The translations under genes and the position numbers were made by a program. The notes under the pieces were generated by a model. It had not been told where the DNA came from and did no database searches. It was given only the letters and a program-made list of their open reading frames with translations. Positions 1,978 through 13,847 of a stretch of DNA of 64,000 nucleotides are shown here, in pieces; the stretch's first letter is position 1, and each line of letters opens with the position of its first letter. This DNA is from a virus. The stretch lies in IMG/VR virus record IMGVR_UViG_3300023198_001125; one strand, 5' to 3'.

Positions 1978-2192
1978 TGTACATACACTACAAATTTTAC
2001 TTTGAGATTTTGTCAGAAGGCGAAATTGATAATTGGCCGCTCGAGGCTGTCTTGAGAGAGGCGAACACTGGCGAACTAGTGGCCGGTAAGTTTGGTAGCT
2101 CGAATGAGTATATAAGTGAAGAAAGGATGGCCGAAAAGCTGGTTGAGTTTGGCTCAGAGCCAGGTTTCTTCAGTATAGGAGAAGAAGAATGA
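1977..2192 (+). CDS. hypothetical protein
   Basis: 71 aa, TAATG coupling, GGAGG RBS. Confidence 0.65.
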   Translation: MYIHYKFYFEILSEGEIDNWPLEAVLREANTGELVAGKFGSSNEYISEERMAEKLVEFGSEPGFFSIGEEE

Positions 2193-2563
2193 GTGGAGCA
2201 TGGAGTGTAGTTGAGAAGGCAAGCGCTGGTGGATCAGCGTACAAGAGCTTTTGGAACGAGATGGTAGTGTTTATGCCAAGTGGCAAGACCACAGGGTTTG
2301 TACTAACCCCCACGGTCAAGGAGAAGCTTGGGAACCCAACGCATGTAATGGTTTTGCACCAGGGTACTAAGATCGGGCTCATGGCGGCTGATGAGACCAA
2401 TTCAAATGGCTATGCACTTACCGGGACAGAGAAGATGGGCAGGGTGAATTGCGCCACCTTCATCAAGGAGCACTGCCCTACCTTTCCATACAGGGTGAAG
2501 TTTGAAGCCAATATGGATGGGGATGTGGTCGTGTTTGATACCACGCAGGGGGAACAAGCATGA
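2189..2563 (+). CDS. hypothetical protein
   Basis: 124 aa, ATGA overlaps at both ends. Confidence 0.7.
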   Translation: MSGAWSVVEKASAGGSAYKSFWNEMVVFMPSGKTTGFVLTPTVKEKLGNPTHVMVLHQGTKIGLMAADETNSNGYALTGTEKMGRVNCATFIKEHCPTFPYRVKFEANMDGDVVVFDTTQGEQA

Positions 2564-2778
2564 GTGACGTAGTTGATATCAAGATCAATTGGGAATTTAT
2601 CCTGCTTGGAGAGGGCCAGGCAGGATATGTGTTTACACAAGCGTTTAACGATTTTCCAATGACGATGCAAATTGACAGCACCACATGGGACGAAATGAGC
2701 TCCGAAGATAGGGAGGAGTGTATTGTCAACGACCTGTGGGAGAGATGCAGAACCAATATAGTCAAAATGAAGGAGTGA
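2560..2778 (+). CDS. hypothetical protein
   Basis: 72 aa, ATGA overlap. Confidence 0.65.
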   Translation: MSDVVDIKINWEFILLGEGQAGYVFTQAFNDFPMTMQIDSTTWDEMSSEDREECIVNDLWERCRTNIVKMKE

Positions 2779-2948: not shown

Positions 2949-3418
2949 AAAAGAAACCGATTGTTGTGGAGGCTATCCAGTTCACTGGTAACAACACTGA
3001 GGAGGTTATTGTGTTTGCGGGCCCCGAACATAGTATAGGGCCCGCAAAATCTGGCGAGCTGGTAATGATAACCCTTGAGGGGACTATGCTTGCCTCAGAC
3101 GGGGATTGGATAATCAAGGGGGCAGTGGGGGAGATTTATCCTGTCAAAGATGATATCTTCCTGCTGACATATGAGACTGTTGATGAACAGCCGGTTTTCG
3201 ACATCGAAAACTATATGAAGTCACCGTCCCAGTGTGGCTTCTGTGGCTCTGGTGATATTGATGCCGGTTTCTTTGATGCAGATAGTGGTACTGGAGTAAC
3301 CAAGGTCAAATGTGATAATTGTGGAGCTGAATGGCAAGATTACTATGAATTGAAAGGAGTTTCAGATGTATATGCGCCTGATGGTACTTACATCGGTAAT
3401 GTCGAGGCAAAGCCATGA
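2930..3418 (+). CDS. common phage protein (KKPIVVEAIQ...GDWIIKG...YPVK family) with C-terminal Zn ribbon
   Basis: N-terminal motif typical of a widespread phage family; CGFC...CDNC at the C-terminus. Confidence 0.75.
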   Translation: MERIRVKKKPIVVEAIQFTGNNTEEVIVFAGPEHSIGPAKSGELVMITLEGTMLASDGDWIIKGAVGEIYPVKDDIFLLTYETVDEQPVFDIENYMKSPSQCGFCGSGDIDAGFFDADSGTGVTKVKCDNCGAEWQDYYELKGVSDVYAPDGTYIGNVEAKP

Positions 3419-3594
3419 TCAAAGATATTGTGCTTTACGCGTGGATAGTGGCCTTTGCGATCTTCATGTTTTTCATGGTGATGGATATCAGGGACTTACT
3501 CAAGAAGGATGTCATCTTTAGTCCCTGGCATCCTCGTGCGGCTATAGCATCAGTTGTTGTGTGTGTATTGGCCGTTGTTTATGTAATTCTATAG
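3415..3594 (+). CDS. small membrane protein
   Basis: 59-aa ORF translated by hand, ATGA overlap, two hydrophobic segments. Confidence 0.55.
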   Translation: MIKDIVLYAWIVAFAIFMFFMVMDIRDLLKKDVIFSPWHPRAAIASVVVCVLAVVYVIL

Positions 3595-3602
3595 GAGGTG
3601 CT

Positions 3603-3752
3603 ATGTTTACTTTACTGGTTATCTTTTTGACCTGGTTGGTGATAAGGAGGGCTAGGTTGAGCGGTGACATTAGCTGTGTCCTTATTACAGCCATGTTTAT
3701 GGACTTCGCTATCATCATGGTGATTGTCGGCATCTGGGCAGGCTGGTGGTGA
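3603..3752 (+). CDS. small membrane protein
   Basis: AGGAGG RBS, 49 aa, hydrophobic. Confidence 0.55.
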   Translation: MFTLLVIFLTWLVIRRARLSGDISCVLITAMFMDFAIIMVIVGIWAGWW

Positions 3753-4008
3753 GAACTATATTGTTTTGGCTGGTGTGGAATGTCCCGCTGGGCAGGCTGG
3801 CTCCCTGGGTGCTGGGGATAGCTTTAGGAACGCCACCTATGCGCAAGAGCAAGTTGCCTTCGGATGGTCAAGGGGACTAAACAACTACATAACAAAAACA
3901 AAAACTGAACCCCCCACCCCCTCCCCCCTCGCCTGATTAGTACAGTCAGAGCCAAGACAACTTGCCTGACATGCCCCTGGGGGGCGGGGCCCCGCGGCGA
4001 CTACCGTC

Positions 4009-5009
4009 GCCGACCATGCGGTAGTGTTTAGTCTCTTCCATGGTCGATGGCATCAAATGAGCCACCCAACGGAGTAGAACTAAAAGCCAACCGAACCCCG
4101 CCCCGTTTGCCAGCCTACGTGGATAGAACAAGAGCCCACGGGGGCTGGGTCAAACGGATGCGTGCTCCCGCCCAAGAACGCTCTGGGCGGGTGATTGCGT
4201 AAGTGCAAGAACGATAGTGCCCGCTACGTGCTGGAACGATAGTACCGTTTAAGAGCATCTGGGCTCGGTCGGCTTCGCCTCCCTCGCCAATGAAAGAACG
4301 TCACACTACCGGCCAGGCCATGGAGGCCACCCACCTTGCTTGGGCCCACCTGCGTGGCAAGAACAGCCACGGGGGTGGGCTCCAGCGGTGGTTGGCTTTC
4401 ATTGAATACGGCCACACCCTACCACCTGCGTGGCACCATGAGCAAAGAACGCTCATGCTTGTGCCACGGGGGTGGTGTAGTGGCCTGCAAGCGGAATACC
4501 ACCCACTCCGTCGTCGACCACTCTCACAACGGGAGTACAACACACCCTGTGCTTGGTGTCGCCTACGTGGTGCAGCCTAAGAACAGGCTGTACACACCAC
4601 GGGGGCTCGCCAGCCAGGGTACCCAATGACGATAGAACGTTGTCATTGGTGTGTTGGTAGCATTGTATCGGTGGTCAACGACATGGGTGGGTGCCTTACT
4701 ATAAGAGGGAGCCAGTGCACTCATATGGTGCATAGAACAAGAGCGCACCACACTCATTGGCACTGGACATGTGGGCCGTGATGCACAGTACGCTCACGCA
4801 TGCCCACATGTGGCTAATGACCACCATGTACGTACACGTATATATATCTAATGATGTGTATGGTACGGCGGCACCAAGAGCAGGTGCCGACCATGCGGTA
4901 GTAGGTGGCCATACATCTAAAAGAACAGTTGTGCTAGGGATTATGTAGTAGTGGTTTTCCTCGAGCCCATTATGGCAATGCCCCCCAAGAACATCAAGAA
5001 CGGGGGGCA
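4009..5009. repeat. non-coding array of nine stem-loops with AAGAAC/TAGAAC/AAGAGC loops; 17-bp direct repeat at 4009-4025 and 4886-4902
   Basis: Hairpins at 4111-4147, 4167-4191, 4344-4380, 4421-4476, 4561-4606, 4623-4649, 4712-4766, 4869-4889, 4979-5009; repeat is GCCGACCATGCGGTAGT. Confidence 0.85.
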
Positions 5010-5133
5010 ATACATGCCAAACGGGCTTGATGTCAAACCACAAGAACCGAACCTAGGTACTATTCAGTAGTGAATTTACGAAGTTGGCTTTTGTTTATTA
5101 ATTGCTAACTATCTTAATTCTCTGGAGGCTCCA

Positions 5134-5376
5134 ATGTCTAAGTTTGGTTTTTGTTTATCCGTCTTCGCTGGTGTGGTCTTATATAACTACACCGTTGAGA
5201 ATTTAGGCCAACCCCATGAGACGGGTGTCGCTGTTGGGTTGGTAATGGCCGTTCTCTCGCTGGCTATAGTCTATGCGTGGGGTGCATCATCCGCATCAAG
5301 CTTGACACAGGATGATCGCCACAGGTATAAGAGCCACGCCCATAAGCGAAGTTCGAGCCACAATCGGTGGAAATAG
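5134..5376 (+). CDS. small membrane protein (2 TM, basic tail)
   Basis: GGAGG RBS, 80 aa. Confidence 0.65.
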   Translation: MSKFGFCLSVFAGVVLYNYTVENLGQPHETGVAVGLVMAVLSLAIVYAWGASSASSLTQDDRHRYKSHAHKRSSSHNRWK

Positions 5377-5561
5377 CCCGTATTTACGCTAATTTCGGCG
5401 TTTTAAGGCGTTTTGCGGAGTATATCCACGTCCTAACCCCCGTAAGCCTAATCAGCATCGTATTTGGCCGTTTTCGCACTAATAATTGGCCAGAAACGAT
5501 GAAATTAGAGGGGATGTTGCTAACGCGTTCTTGGTTAGTATATACCACTAAGGAGGTAGTA

Positions 5562-5891
5562 ATGATCACCGTAGTAAATAGGCATTCCTATACAGGCAAG
5601 GGTGTCTATATCGGCCGTGGCACTGCATTAGGGAACAAGTTCTCACATGCAGGCTACAAGGGCACAATCAAGGTGCCAAGCCGACAACAATCTGTTGAGC
5701 GGTATGCTCGCTGGCTAAAAAAGCAGTTGAATATGCCACAATCACCAGCATGCGTGATGTTCTTGAAACTGGCTCAGCAAGCATGGGCAGGCAAGGACGT
5801 CACGTTGATTTGCTCATGCGCTCCGAAAGCATGCCATGGAGACGTGATCAAGCAGGCCATCGAAAACTTACTTGAGGAGGTCAAGTCATGA
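5562..5891 (+). CDS. DUF4326 family protein
   Basis: VVN...GVYIGRGT.LGNKF and LICSCAPKACHGDVI signature; AAGGAGG RBS before ATG 5562. Confidence 0.85.
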   Translation: MITVVNRHSYTGKGVYIGRGTALGNKFSHAGYKGTIKVPSRQQSVERYARWLKKQLNMPQSPACVMFLKLAQQAWAGKDVTLICSCAPKACHGDVIKQAIENLLEEVKS

Positions 5892-8702: not shown

Positions 8703-8774
8703 TCGAATTGGGCGTGGCCGTAATGGCTACGCCCTTTCTTGGGTTAATATCCAACTCATTGACTATAGGAGGTC

Positions 8775-9077
8775 ATGATGATTTATTACAACCCGAACGT
8801 AGAACTGTTCTGTGATGCGTGTGGCATCGAGATAGTGACTAGCAACTATTGCACCTATCCCAACTACGATGGTGTATTCCATCGTCAATGTGCCAACCCG
8901 GAGGCGGTCGATGGCCTACTAATTGGCTATAACAACGTTGTAGTAGGCGTTGATGAAACGGTGCTCGTGAAAGAGGCCGTTGAAACAGCCGATGCACGCC
9001 AGCACCCAAGTGATTGTGGTTGCAGTTGGTGTGTACCGTTAGCTTGGGGGAGCCTCACTCCAGCGGCGGAGTATTAA
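8775..9077 (+). CDS. hypothetical Zn-binding protein
   Basis: CDAC...HRQC, CGCSWC; AGGAGGT RBS. Confidence 0.7.
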   Translation: MMIYYNPNVELFCDACGIEIVTSNYCTYPNYDGVFHRQCANPEAVDGLLIGYNNVVVGVDETVLVKEAVETADARQHPSDCGCSWCVPLAWGSLTPAAEY

Positions 9078-9203
9078 GGCTTGCACCGCTCAGCGAAGAA
9101 CCAGCTGAGCGCCGTCAAGCCCGGCGGCCTGGCCATTCGGCTAGGTCGCCTTTTCTTGGGTTAAGCCATAATTCTGTGGCTAATTCTCTCACGGAGGTGC
9201 ACG

Positions 9204-9320
9204 ATGTTCTTGGGTATTCCTACTTGGCAATGGGGGATAGTTCTGTTAATCCTATTCGTAGTATGGAGGTTGTGGGATGCCATCACAATTACCAAACCCA
9301 CGCACAGATGGGACGAGTAG
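9204..9320 (+). CDS. small single-TM protein
   Basis: 38 aa (MFLGIPTWQWGIVLLILFVVWRLW...), GGAGGT RBS; translated by hand. Confidence 0.55.
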   Translation: MFLGIPTWQWGIVLLILFVVWRLWDAITITKPTHRWDE

Positions 9321-9596
9321 CCCAAGCCGAGAGCCAGGCAAAGAACGCCTGGCTCTCTACCTATTTTTTTGTAGAACATGGAGATTGTTCCTACCCAAAG
9401 GTGGTAAAACAAAAGCCACCTTTGGCTGGAACAATGAACATCAAGGAGCAACAGGCTCCAACACGAAGGAGGTGCATGTAAAGACGAGTAAGAGCCTTGC
9501 TAAGTACGTCTATGAAGGGCGAGGACAGGGAGTTAAGGGCCAACACGCTATACGCGAAAATATCTCTATCCCACCCCTGGTCACAAGGAGATAATC

Positions 9597-9779: not shown

Positions 9780-9952
9780 ACGACATAATGCAAAATCCAT
9801 GGACAACAGTATGCTCATGCATAATCGTGTGGACTGTTATCGCAATGGCATTCATTGCGTATAAGTCAAGAAACAGTCACACGACAAACGAGGAAGATGA
9901 ACAATTCTACTTTCGGGTAAGCGACATAGGCTCAGGAGGCCACGATGAATAA
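9776..9952 (+). CDS. small single-TM protein
   Basis: 58 aa translated by hand, AGGAGG RBS, ATGA overlap. Confidence 0.55.
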   Translation: MNDIMQNPWTTVCSCIIVWTVIAMAFIAYKSRNSHTTNEEDEQFYFRVSDIGSGGHDE

Positions 9953-12287
9953 AGTTGATCGCAAGACCAAGGTGCACGTCATTACACCACAGGGCACACT
10001 AATTGAAGAGCGCACGCTCACCAATAGCCCATGGCCAGAACTTTACCCAGATCGTGACATGGTAATCATCGACTGGATGGCAAATACTCAGATACGACCT
10101 GATGAGGAGGCAATAGCAACACCTGTTGAATACGAGGGCAGGATATACTATGGTAATGCCTATTGGGGGAGCGCAGTAAAACAGGGTGTGACCATCGGCG
10201 TGACTGAACACTTCCTTGACGGCCGTATGGTCAAGAAGGCTGAGGATGGCCAGCGTGTAGGACGCTATCTGTTCGCTGAAGGTCATTGGGGTGCAATACA
10301 AGGCAAGTTACGTGTACGTGTATCACCAATCAACACCATGACACCATGGGGATTGATACATGATGGTGCTGGATTTGTACGCAAGGGATTGGCAGATCGA
10401 GCCTACTCAGGTCTGGATAAAATCAGGCTAGGACGAGCGAAAGAGAGTTATACGTTCTGGCAGAGAATTCCATGGACACTCGAGTTGGCACGAGAACTAG
10501 ACCCAATCCTGTCTGAGGCAGTAATGGCCGCTTCAGACATCTCCAAGTTGCTCTTGCAATACTCACCAGCCTCGTTTGATGAAAAACGAGCACTATACGA
10601 GGCAGACAACACAATGGACGAACACCCATACATTGTGAATGCAATTGCACGCAGTTCTGGTGAGTATCTCTCACGCATGGCTACCACAGCAAATGTGGGT
10701 ACTCGATGCGGCGTGATTGTACCAACACAGGCAGACATCGTAATTCCAAGTATGCCTGATGGCAATCCAGTCATTGGCTATCGACACCCCATCGATAGCA
10801 ATGGCTCAATCCAAGCGATGGTGAACAGCACGGACGAGGCAGAGTTCGTGTCTTATGGTCTATCTCAATTCACGCTAGCATCAGGGGAGATATTTGCTAA
10901 GGGTGTGTCCCGAGAGGTAGAAACAGATGACTTTGATGTCTGGCTATGCGATGAGGATATCAAGATGTCTGAATTGCCCCTAGAGGAAGTACGTCGTGAG
11001 GGCGAGTACGAAATAGACAGCATCTATGCTCAAACTCAGCGCCATAAAGAGAACACGGCCGTTGGTATGAACCTTGATAAAGCATCTGTAAGGCAAGGAG
11101 CAGATGGAGACGGCGACATTGAGGATATCGTTGACGGCAACAAGTACCCTGCATTGTACAGCGCAGTGTTACAACAGCCAGAGGGTACAACCAAGAAACT
11201 CGTGAAGTCAAATAGCCCGCTTGATGAACGTACATCAATGATATACAAGTCAATGATGAACTTGGTTGGATTTGCTACCAAGATCATGACTGACACGCTC
11301 ATGGTAACAGACCGTGAATACCTCGCAGACCAACTAGGCTACGAGAACGAGGCCGAAATGGACGCAGAGGGCAACTACCACATCAAGGTCGGCACTGATG
11401 GCTTCAAGACCAACATCGACCAAGCAGAGGTGCGAGCAAGGTTATCAACACTGCAATCCAACATGTTGGGATTGTTTGGCAAGGGTGCACCATACAGTGA
11501 TTGGCCTAACGACCAAGCATTCACACGCTCCATACCTCAGATTTGGCATGAGGGCATGGACGACGAGGATGCAATCGAGGCAATCATGCCATGGATGGAC
11601 AGCACAGTGCCCAGTATATCCCGGCGTGTACTTCCCGGATTGCAGAACGTGTTAGCGGAGCCGTTCAAGACACGCCCATTGACCACATACAAGTATTGGG
11701 CAGACCATTCCACGTACGATGCGCTTAGAATAGCGAGGAAGATGCAGGATTGGTACAACGCCAATGCCAGCGAGGTCAACTGGCAGGATGCAATCGCAAT
11801 CCAGCAATTCAAGTTGGAATGGAAAGAGCGTATTGCAGATGAGACACTACCACGATACGAACTGGCTAATGCACTATGGTTTATAGCGCATGGAGCACGT
11901 AGTGTCAACAGCGGCGCAGGCTCAGTGTTCCTTGGTTTCCCTGAAGAGGCACTCGACATCGTGCTTGAGAAACCCGGACAGCAGTACGTGAAGACCGAAC
12001 AGGGCTATGAAACGGTAATCGTAGGATTGCCAAAGCAATGCCCCAATGTCCTCGAGATGAAAGGCGAGGTAACGATCATTGACGTACCCCTGAAGAAAGC
12101 AGGCAAACTGATGGTGCGCAAAGCCATTGTTGCCGTCGTGGAAGGACAGTTACAGCCAAGTGACAACCGCTATCCAGAGAACACGATAGCATTAGTCGCT
12201 ACCAATGCCTTCCAGCCTCCAGCAGGTGTATACGAGGCATCAATCACACCAAACAGTGAGGCATCACACCTTATTGTATTGGCATAG
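9945..12287 (+). CDS. single-subunit two-barrel RNA polymerase, YonO/eukaryotic-RdRP-like
   Basis: 780 aa; catalytic GADGDGD (DxDGD), HDGAGFV (DGxG), YRHP, FAKG motifs. Confidence 0.75.
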   Translation: MNKVDRKTKVHVITPQGTLIEERTLTNSPWPELYPDRDMVIIDWMANTQIRPDEEAIATPVEYEGRIYYGNAYWGSAVKQGVTIGVTEHFLDGRMVKKAEDGQRVGRYLFAEGHWGAIQGKLRVRVSPINTMTPWGLIHDGAGFVRKGLADRAYSGLDKIRLGRAKESYTFWQRIPWTLELARELDPILSEAVMAASDISKLLLQYSPASFDEKRALYEADNTMDEHPYIVNAIARSSGEYLSRMATTANVGTRCGVIVPTQADIVIPSMPDGNPVIGYRHPIDSNGSIQAMVNSTDEAEFVSYGLSQFTLASGEIFAKGVSREVETDDFDVWLCDEDIKMSELPLEEVRREGEYEIDSIYAQTQRHKENTAVGMNLDKASVRQGADGDGDIEDIVDGNKYPALYSAVLQQPEGTTKKLVKSNSPLDERTSMIYKSMMNLVGFATKIMTDTLMVTDREYLADQLGYENEAEMDAEGNYHIKVGTDGFKTNIDQAEVRARLSTLQSNMLGLFGKGAPYSDWPNDQAFTRSIPQIWHEGMDDEDAIEAIMPWMDSTVPSISRRVLPGLQNVLAEPFKTRPLTTYKYWADHSTYDALRIARKMQDWYNANASEVNWQDAIAIQQFKLEWKERIADETLPRYELANALWFIAHGARSVNSGAGSVFLGFPEEALDIVLEKPGQQYVKTEQGYETVIVGLPKQCPNVLEMKGEVTIIDVPLKKAGKLMVRKAIVAVVEGQLQPSDNRYPENTIALVATNAFQPPAGVYEASITPNSEASHLIVLA

Positions 12288-13116: not shown

Positions 13117-13449
13117 ATGGAAGTAATACTATTAGACAAGGGCATGTTCATCAACGACGAGCCCCAGTTCAGAAAGGTAATGTTTCCTAAGTCTACGCAC
13201 CTAGCAATCGAACATCGAGTGATGCTAGCGGCGTCAGTCCTGACGGGCAATGGCTTCCCGGCATTCAGGCGTGTATCCAAGCGAGGTGTACCGCATGTAG
13301 TGGCTCGAAACAAAACATTCTCAGTAACGTGGTTTCAAAAGGCACGGACATGGAGATTGTTCACGCCATACAATGCGGAATTCCCTGATAAGCATGATTT
13401 CTACGATTTGAACGAACTAGTAGACTTCCTCATGGAGGAAAAGACATGA
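13117..13449 (+). CDS. hypothetical protein
   Basis: GGAG RBS before ATG 13117. Confidence 0.65.
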   Translation: MEVILLDKGMFINDEPQFRKVMFPKSTHLAIEHRVMLAASVLTGNGFPAFRRVSKRGVPHVVARNKTFSVTWFQKARTWRLFTPYNAEFPDKHDFYDLNELVDFLMEEKT

Positions 13450-13847
13450 TAGTCGTATACACAGATGGAGCATGCAGATTGTCGGGTGGAGGCCCCGGTG
13501 GTTGGGCTTTCCTAGCGGATGGAGAACTCGTATCAGGTGGACTGAGATGGACAACCAATAACGCCGCTGAATTATGGGCAATATGGTTTGCCATACTCCA
13601 TGTGGAGGCCAACACCAACGTGCTATTCGTAACAGATAGCAGAAACGTAATCGGGTGGTTGCAAAGAGACTGGAATAGAAGGCAACCACACATCAACGAG
13701 TTATGCCTGATGATTACAGATGCCAAACGTGAGAAGGGCATCAAATGGGCATTCAAGAAAGTGAAAGGACATGCACAAAATGAAAGCAATAACATTGTCG
13801 ATCACGCCGCAACAAATGAGGCACTCAAACTCCTCCGTCAACTATGA
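13446..13847 (+). CDS. rnhA: ribonuclease HI
   Basis: YTDGAC...GPGGW, TNNAAEL, VTDS, KVKGH..NE.N..VD..A. Confidence 0.92.
   Translation: MIVVYTDGACRLSGGGPGGWAFLADGELVSGGLRWTTNNAAELWAIWFAILHVEANTNVLFVTDSRNVIGWLQRDWNRRQPHINELCLMITDAKREKGIKWAFKKVKGHAQNESNNIVDHAATNEALKLLRQL

Follow-up and report, generated by a model that had tools for sequence, protein, structure and literature searches.

Protein-sponge RNAs are well known in bacteria. In CsrB, CsrC, RsmX, RsmY and RsmZ, many hairpins with unrelated stems present one loop motif (GGA or ANGGA) in variable copy number, following a logic of multivalent capture; these RNAs are encoded by stand-alone genes with known promoters and terminators. In Pseudomonas, CrcZ and CrcY carry several A-rich single-stranded motifs by which Hfq is bound at its distal (A-R-N) face and titrated (PMC4063720). 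We observed a locus of comparable anatomy in the IMG/VR virus record IMGVR_UViG_3300023198_001125, of which we analyzed one stretch of 64,000 nt (hereafter the window). Near its left end lies a tract of hairpins, free of open reading frames (ORFs), whose stems differ and whose loops share a hexamer of the type AAGAAC. Our preferred reading, which is tentative and falls just short of an even chance in our estimate, is that the tract specifies a multivalent, protein-binding plus-strand RNA within the early transcript, which would act as a platform or sponge for a reader of AAGWAC loops.

The tract shares with the CsrB/Rsm RNAs the unrelated stems, the single loop motif, the variable copy number and the logic of capture, but its motif is AAGWAC instead of GGA (GGA is found in none of its 22 predicted loops), it is three to four times longer, it lies within a phage early operon, and it has no match to the CsrB/Rsm models of Rfam. 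As for CrcZ, the loops AAGAAC and AAGAACA and the double loops of the tract can be read as two to five AAN/ARN triplets. The CrcZ stretches, however, are long enough for the six pockets of an Hfq hexamer while most loops of the tract have only 6–8 nt, the AAGTAC variant seen in relatives breaks the A-R-N rule, and the tract has no match to CrcZ or CrcY in Rfam. With no GGA, no model match and short loops, the tract does not appear to belong to the CsrB/Rsm or CrcZ families. It resembles GOLLD and ROOL in having hundreds to >1,000 bases of phage noncoding sequence with many helices near tRNA-rich or early regions, but where those RNAs have a single global fold that is conserved, the tract strings together similar hairpins that are independent of each other and turn over rapidly.

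Searches for a known family or for other copies agree with this. A search of Rfam with positions 3500–5500 of the window (cmscan, E up to 1) gave only two chance-level matches, both to unrelated eukaryotic models, and the corresponding tracts of two related phages (L067 and L073, see below) had no match to Rfam, including the GOLLD, ROOL, OLE and HEARO models; a first-pass annotation, made from the letters of the window alone, had also named no matching family. The tract and 20 kb beside it have no blastn match among 50,697 phage records. A structured hairpin pattern built on one of the stem modules described below (TGCTTGGGC...GCTCCAGC) has a single real match in IMG/VR, the L067 contig, and all 107 matches of the same pattern in 185,579 species genomes are unpaired chance occurrences or coding sequences. 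The proteins encoded by neighboring genes lead in IMG/VR only to distant phages, which have no such tract. We conclude that the element is new, since no Rfam family, phage record, other IMG/VR contig or species genome searched holds the hairpin; noncoding RNAs in which repeated hairpins share a loop are already known as a general kind.

Some other candidates were rejected. A CRISPR array or a mimic of its repeats was ruled out because the direct repeats of the tract form only two-copy families with irregular spacing. REP-, BIME- or MITE-like elements were ruled out because the stems differ at six tip pairs while the loop is kept, and because the copies are confined to the early region. A 17-mer from the tract gave nine single matches in IMG/VR, on unrelated contigs, which we take as chance.

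The first-pass annotation had described a noncoding hairpin array of ∼1 kb at 4009–5009. It is indeed noncoding, and it is wider: the hairpin tract spans 3881–5133 (∼1.25 kb, plus strand), from the stop codon of a small ORF (3746–3880) to the ATG of an ORF for a small membrane protein at 5134. Its GC content is 0.58–0.60, compared with 0.44–0.47 in the flanks. Each of the six frames of 3881–5133 contains 13–16 stop codons, and no translated similarity to the tracts of L067 and L073 was found by tblastn, so the tract does not code for protein; no conserved protein-coding ORF explains the region. The tract had been placed just upstream of the early genes, which is imprecise: it does belong to the plus-strand early region, but it lies within this region, between two blocks of early genes. 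All long ORFs (at least 150 aa) from the start of the window to ∼20 kb are on the plus strand. The window further encodes a major head protein, a DnaB-type helicase, 13 tRNAs, a mini-tmRNA and a 780-aa polymerase (9945–12287), which we take to be YonO-like rather than N4-like and which was used here only as a marker for finding relatives.

All nine loops with a shared sequence that had been noticed earlier are present on the plus strand: the double-hexamer loop ATAGAACAAGAGC at both 4123–4135 and 4732–4744, AAGAACGCTCT at 4174–4184, AAGAACA at 4359–4365, AAAGAAC at 4444–4450, AAGAAC at 4579–4584, TAGAACG at 4633–4639, AAGAGCA at 4876–4882 and AAGAACATCAAGAAC at 4987–5001. The hexamer is single in loops of 6–8 nt and doubled in tandem in loops of 13–15 nt. 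Further members are found at 4234–4250, 4777–4798 and 4912–4933, and unpaired copies of the motif at 4207, 4294 and 5042. Counting perfect stems of at least 5 bp with AAGAAC, AAGAGC or TAGAAC in the loop, we found eight such hairpins in the tract (0.09 ± 0.29 are expected from 200 dinucleotide shuffles) and none on the minus strand. Ten of the 31 copies of AAGAAC in the window fall in the tract, which makes up 1.9% of its length. The pattern of hexamer loops on stems is far beyond chance.

The motif is also confined to one strand: GAAC occurs 18 times in the tract and GTTC not once, so the loops have no internal pairing partner. When the tract is folded at full length, AGAAC, AGAGC or AGUAC is found in 11 of the 22 hairpin loops; 52% of the loop bases are A, and the unpaired bases are 39% A and 16% G. 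Loops and unpaired bases that are rich in A and poor in G are typical of known folded RNAs. A reader of single strands would need a loop motif that is biased 18:0 to one strand while the stem sequences are free; a duplex site would not.

An alternative is that the minus strand is the functional one. Its loops would read (U)G(U/C)UCUU(U/G), which is a boxA core, and a stand-alone antisense RNA would soak up NusB/S10 or a similar factor. boxA is the RNA site of NusB-S10 in antitermination complexes, with GUUCUUU and GCUCUUU as the two common cores, and the loops, when reverse-complemented, give UGUUCUU, GUUCUUU, UGCUCUU, GCUCUUGUUCUAU and GUUCUUGAUGUUCUU. A weak promoter-like site on that strand (5140–5111), a left tract edge with a G/C hairpin ahead of a U-rich run, and slightly better folding of the L067 and L073 tracts point in the same direction. 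However, the U-run at the left edge is not kept in L067, U-rich loops are less typical of folded RNAs, and the biggest hairpin of the tract (hairpin 5, 4320–4402) has −62.1 kcal/mol (z −8.1) on the plus strand but −49.8 kcal/mol on the minus strand, where its G-U pairs become A-C, making it 12 kcal/mol less stable. We rate the minus-strand boxA reading low, as the least probable of those considered here, for three reasons: AAGTAC is as frequent as AAGAAC in the relatives and its complement, GUACUU, is not boxA-like; lone copies of the hairpin belong to plus-strand operons, in which one would hardly expect antisense transcription; and boxA is normally linear, not looped.

Phages related to that of the window are rare, and two were reached through the polymerase marker: L067, an IMG/VR contig (IMG 3300027987; 54% identity), and L073/L074, one ENA contig from two samples (ERZ23498638 for L073; 50%). 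Among the 21 polymerase homologues found in a large protein index (P0002, P0013 and P0026 were left out of the tract comparison), only L073/L074 has a syntenic tract, and the five contigs from a metagenome scan by polymerase are all too short to reach it. Both L067 and L073 have a GC-rich, gene-free hairpin tract at the same syntenic position, downstream of an early block that encodes a conserved protein of 124 aa; in both the window and L067, the conserved small membrane ORF follows directly. This ORF (5134–5376, plus strand) encodes a two-helix protein with a basic tail, corresponds to L067 6490–6702 (BLASTP E 8e-8, 35% identity), matches no Pfam family and is used only as a synteny marker.

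The primary sequences of the three tracts can barely be aligned; there are few blastn anchors (e.g. window 3906–3922 equals L067 5280–5296), which keep their order. The loops recur all the same in the relatives. L067 has five plus-strand hairpins with AAGAAC or AAGTAC loops, compared with 0.10 in shuffles, and L073 has four in its main tract (0.25 in shuffles) and two in a second small tract (0.05 in shuffles); the minus strand has none in either phage. When nine hairpin tips drawn from all three phages are aligned, 98% of the cells pair and all six pairs vary on both sides; since the tips were picked as hairpins, the 98% is partly circular and demonstrates the diversity of the stems, not proof of structure. 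The suggestion that variable stems carry constant loops is thus supported in L067 and L073, where the loops are kept and the stems differ yet pair.

Two mismatch modules within the stems are conserved as well. The TGCTTGGGC/GCTCCAGC module, which has one U-C mismatch and one G-U pair, is identical to the letter in the window (4338–4386), in L067 (9565–9608) and twice in L073 (5264 and 5337). The helices outside it (CCACC/GGTGG, CATGCCAC/GTGGCATG and CCCACC/GGTGGG) are different, as are the inner helices, yet these helices still pair, and the tips of these hairpins are AAGAACA or AAGTACA. The CC-TG-CGTGG/CCACG-GG-GG module occurs four times in the window and also at L067 5628–5685; in the more general form CC-TR-CGTGG/CCACG-GG-GG it had already been noticed in four stems, where we find it again (4110, 4344, 4421 and 4561). 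CCACGGGGG, a part of this module, has four copies in the whole window, all within the tract. In L073, two hairpins (∼2871–2915 and ∼3392–3436) are made of the same two 12-mer arms in swapped order, with AAGAAC on the plus strand in both; keeping the loop orientation is unlike a plain DNA inversion, which would flip the loop.

Judged from these sequences, the position of the tract is conserved while its repertoire of hairpins turns over. Such turnover is what one might see if the tract had no dedicated function and were a fast-evolving spacer that collects hairpin repeats (REP/MITE-like or products of duplication): each phage has expanded other hairpin types, the sequence is barely alignable, and the four hairpins with the CGTGG module look duplicated. 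We nevertheless find this explanation very unlikely. In selfish palindromes the stem is constant and the loop varies, the opposite of what is seen here; a strand-specific motif is shared by three phages whose polymerases are only 50–54% identical; a tract of 1.2–2 kb is retained at one syntenic place in compact genomes; and, besides its absence from IMG/VR beyond L067 and from the 185,579 species genomes, the hairpin has no copies in the structural half of the window.

Two side observations concern the relatives. The main tract of L073 (1790–3800) is a 2-kb gene-free region with a GC content of 0.62–0.67, in which two called genes are probably spurious; in it, AGACCCC comes after each of at least seven hairpins of the form GGGGC-N3-4-GCCCC, and a unit with GAGTACG linkers is duplicated. 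More distant relatives have structured noncoding gaps of 0.35–0.9 kb upstream of the polymerase gene (L076 494–1406, L079 526–879 and L075 9335–10001), with long plus-strand hairpins that have 14–17-bp stems and are capped by GNRA tetraloops (GCAA, GAGA and GCGA). AAGWAC loops were not found in the structured gaps of the distant relatives L075–L079.

The evidence leans to RNA, as the loops are A-rich and on the plus strand in three phages, lone copies of the hairpin lie between plus-strand genes, and the L073 hairpins with swapped arms keep their loop orientation; the plus-strand GNRA-capped hairpins in the same early region of the distant relatives also count for a plus-strand RNA. Lone hairpins of the same type are found on the plus strand of the window at 9087–9111 (8-bp stem, loop GAAGAACCA; after the ORF at 8775–9077 and before a terminator-like hairpin) and at 9329–9357 (11-bp stem, loop AAAGAAC; after the ORF at 9204–9320, with a T-run 6 nt on). 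The relatives also have lone intercistronic hairpins in their plus-strand early operons, namely those at L067 9565 and at L073 5264 and 5337.

From this we infer transcription, the strand, protein binding and a titrating role, which could fit together as follows. The tract would encode a long segment of folded RNA within the plus-strand early transcript. This RNA would fold as a chain of independent hairpins, several of them ∼85 nt long, whose tips would offer single-stranded AAGWAC or AAGAGC either once (6–8 nt) or twice (13–15 nt). The loops would dock a single protein, encoded by phage or host, that binds RNA in a sequence-specific way, and the mismatch modules in the stems may add contacts. 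Through the lone sites between early genes the same protein would control those messages, and the tract, offering at least a dozen sites, would collect or titrate it early in infection as a platform or sink of high capacity. By analogy, such a mechanism would follow the logic of CsrB/RsmZ or CrcZ.

The lone copies can also be taken as a sign that the plus-strand hairpins act only in cis, as processing, stabilizing or antitermination signals stacked between two early blocks. Such signals are exemplified by the RNase III sites between the early genes of T7 and by nut and put sites. In support, the lone copies lie at gene boundaries beside terminator-like hairpins (the copy at 9087 before a hairpin and T-run at 9123, the copy at 9329 followed by a T-run), two terminator-like cassettes are seen downstream of the tract, the imperfect 85-nt hairpins resemble RNase III substrates as generally known, and a promoter-like TTGCTA-N16-TATATA at 5514–5544 would place the tract at the end of a transcription unit. 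The nut sites of lambda and the put sites of HK022 are similar in being small hairpins in early transcripts, recognized by their loops and located upstream of terminators. The boxB of lambda, however, has a 5-nt GNRA-like loop and occurs once per operon arm together with a linear boxA, whereas the tract has a dozen stacked hairpins with loops of 6–15 nt. No GNRNA pentaloop closed as in boxB is found among the loops of the tract, and there is no linear boxA (G[C/U]UCUUU) on its plus strand, where GTTC is absent; a boxA-like core is seen only when the loops are read on the opposite strand. Punctuation would call for far fewer than a dozen signals within a gene-free 1.2 kb, and RNase III sites and terminators require no fixed loop sequence. 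An action in cis alone is in our view unlikely, yet it is the main alternative to our preferred reading.

The first-pass annotation had left open whether the array is a decoy RNA that binds protein or a DNA platform. Of these, the RNA is favored, its use as a sponge being our conjecture, and the DNA platform is weakened by the lack of a DnaA-box cluster, the distance to replication genes and the lack of N4 geometry. As DNA, the tract would serve as a replication origin or in packaging or the stopping of injection by way of hairpins or cruciforms, like the iss of T5 or single-strand initiation hairpins. The T5 iss, part of the terminal repeat, is an untranslated region rich in repeats (direct and inverted) and palindromes; it comes after small pre-early genes near one end of the genome and has eight ordered DnaA boxes (bioRxiv 10.1101/866236). 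The tract resembles it as a large untranslated region, rich in repeats and palindromes, that follows a block of tiny early ORFs. In L067 the tract is ∼3.5 kb into a plus-strand early block, which begins where it diverges from the structural genes, as might be expected of a first DNA segment to enter that is followed by a stop. Furthermore, an AT island inside the GC-rich tract is conserved, the genes for RNA polymerase (RNAP), RNase H and SSB cluster in the relatives, which would fit replication primed by transcripts, and two Logan contigs (from two samples) with a distant homologue of the 124-aa protein stop within 60 nt after its gene.

A DNA site, however, leaves the 18:0 strand bias and the combination of differing stems with kept loops unexplained, whether it works as a cruciform or as duplex; the conserved feature is a strand-specific loop, for which a duplex site such as iss has no need. 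Unlike iss, the tract has no cluster of DnaA boxes, but one box with one mismatch (4809; the window has 19 compared with 16.9 expected). The helicase and other replication genes are ∼27–31 kb away, the cumulative GC skew does not turn at the tract, the lone copies lie between genes and not at plausible origins, and single-strand initiation signals are generally known to occur in ones or twos, not in dozens. The promoters of the N4 virion RNAP are a further DNA likeness, being small hairpins with sequence-specific loops in the early region of a phage with its own unusual polymerase. N4 promoters have a 5–7-bp stem and a 3-nt loop and are each followed by early genes, whereas the tract has loops of 6–15 nt, stems of up to 40 bp and hairpins spaced by 60–100 nt without intervening ORFs. 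For YonO itself, no promoter is known (PMC5467207). Taken together, we consider a function as DNA quite improbable.

Several observations weigh against our preferred reading of the tract as a multivalent plus-strand RNA. Scans for promoters and terminators on both strands of the tract stayed at chance level and gave none that is convincing. Pfam finds no RNA-binding domain in 20 early proteins, and the conserved 124-aa protein weakly resembles a DNA-binding MraZ/AbrB fold. The main tract of L073 consists mostly of other hairpin types, so that the display of AAGAAC is not the only thing conserved at this place, and a family of three members is too small for a covariation statistic on orthologous columns. 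Sliding-window folding is neutral for the window and slightly better on the minus strand for L067 and L073; however, the latter arises because these tracts are C-rich on the plus strand, and as the folding energy follows the G/C skew it is not decisive for the choice of strand.

The hairpins of the window tract, all on the plus strand, are arranged as follows. The tract opens with a long-range hairpin of a C-run and a G-run (3918–3989), an inverted repeat whose start (TGAAC..CCCACCCCCT) can be aligned with the start of the L067 tract. Behind a GC hairpin (3995–4012) comes the first copy of a 17-bp direct repeat (4009–4025); as the first-pass annotation had noted, there is one copy near each end, and the copies at 4009 and 4886 are exact. 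The repeat was looked for in L067 and L073 and is not conserved there. It contains GCGGTAGTGT (4015–4030 and 4892–4907), which differs at one of ten positions from what we take to be the core of the enterobacterial ops element (GGCGGTAGCGTG); this is probably a coincidence, and it is not conserved in the relatives. Hairpin 1 (4099–4162; −32.6 kcal/mol, z −3.5) contains a CC-TA-CGTGG/CCACG-GG-GG module and a 13-nt double-hexamer loop, and hairpin 2 (4167–4191) has an 8-bp GC stem, similar to a stem at L067 6279–6310, with the loop AGAACGCTC. Between 4200 and 4250, a repeat search and folding show a direct-repeat pair, AAGAACGATAGT and TGGAACGATAGT, and the small hairpin at 4234–4250 (loop ATAGTAC).

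Hairpin 5 has, from its base to its tip, an outer helix, the TGCTTGGGC/GCTCCAGC module, the CC-TG-CGTGG/CCACG-GG-GG module and the 7-nt loop AAGAACA. Hairpins 6 (4410–4485; −52.6 kcal/mol, z −7.2) and 7 (4544–4620; −48.3 kcal/mol, z −4.9) are also long, both with the CGTGG/CCACGGGGG module and a tip helix (an extra one in hairpin 6), and end in AAAGAAC and AAGAAC, respectively. Hairpin 8 (4623–4649; z −4.0) has a 10-bp stem and the loop TAGAACG. Hairpin 9 (4712–4766) combines an outer stem (CCAGTGC/GCACTGG) and a tip stem with a 13-nt double-hexamer loop nearly identical to that of hairpin 1, and hairpin 10 (4767–4811) has a perfect 10-bp outer stem and CAGTAC in its inner tip loop. The AT-rich island (GTATATATAT, 4826–4860, not assigned to a strand) can be aligned with L067 5974–5987 and could be a promoter −10 or an unwinding element. 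It is followed by hairpin 11 with the loop AAGAGCA and the second copy of the 17-bp repeat (4867–4902 together, the repeat at 4886–4902; from repeat search and folding); the stem and loop of this hairpin are nearly identical to L073 5268–5285. A weak hairpin with the loop AAAAGAAC (4912–4933, from the hairpin scan and folding) and hairpin 13 (4973–5019), with an 8-bp GC stem and a 15-nt loop that holds two copies of AAGAAC, complete the series.

Two possible pairings of the loops with other parts of the early region were considered. Pairing in trans with GUUCUUGG sites in early messages was rejected, as these sites encode the first residues (Met-Phe-Leu-Gly) of small ORFs and show no enrichment, and a 9-nt complementarity between the loop at 4172–4180 and a hairpin at 5525–5533, with a weaker echo in L067, is within chance.

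The genes and signals around the tract have features of their own. The 124-aa early protein (window 2189–2563, L073 1403–1786 and L067 4410–4781) has no Pfam family. Its structure model has a pLDDT of 86, and the only hint of a fold is MraZ, a tandem AbrB-like DNA binder (probability 0.8, TM 0.48). A profile search gave about 55 relatives, of which the close ones are only the two already known, and a word-index search returned only the protein itself. A 72-aa acidic protein (window 2560–2778, L073 806–1081), for which no family is known, is 85% identical between the two phages compared with 50% for the polymerases, which is unusually strong for a tiny early ORF.

The gap of ∼180 nt after the membrane ORF (window 5376–5560, L067 6700–6880) shows much stronger conservation than the tract itself. 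GGCGTTTT-type repeats, TAACCCCCGTA, GGCCGTTTT(T)GCAC and GCTAACGCGTTCT are found there, and the promoter-like sequence at 5514–5544 lies in it, ahead of a DUF4326 gene whose true start is probably the ATG at 5562; the gap looks like a regulated promoter with operators. The word GCTAACGCG is found on the plus strand only, at 5519, 13866, 22644, 26801, 27830, 32116, 34851, 44993 and 61994 of the window, and also in the relatives (L067 1645 and 6863; L073 6494; L076 5627; L078 6256 and 6277). It often stands 25–45 nt before a ribosome-binding site or just past a terminator, and could be a promoter or another signal of the phage's own polymerase. GC hairpins at 8710–8745 and 9123–9165 have the common tail TTT(T)CTTGGGTTAA; the lone hairpin at 9087–9111 ends 12 nt before the second of these. 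In the window and most relatives an RNase H gene is located 0.3–1.2 kb after the polymerase gene (window 13446–13847, L076 4799–5206, L077 3014–3601 and L103 2493–2912), often with SSB nearby, which hints that the polymerase may also serve in the priming of replication.

The phage is already rich in RNA, with its tRNAs, mini-tmRNA, a Y-RNA-like gene and its own YonO-type polymerase. A bolder and rather unlikely reading is that the tract gives a new class of host-takeover RNA, an abundant early transcript with a dozen or more identical loop sites that capture a host RNA-binding factor (for instance an Hfq-like binder of A-rich sequence, or NusB-S10 if the minus strand is used). If so, the RNA metabolism of the host would be reprogrammed, and each phage lineage would re-tool its hairpin types for its own host. 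The anatomy of the tract is unusually clear and testable, its function being a proposal, and the loop hexamer together with the two fixed mismatch modules offers concrete handles for finding the partner protein. The phage group is thought to infect Chloroflexota; even as a stack of cis signals or as a DNA site, the tract would be a conserved regulatory landmark for this uncultured group. If the tract does act as proposed, a kilobase-scale multivalent hairpin RNA among the earliest phage genes would be a new viral means of seizing or regulating control at the RNA level.

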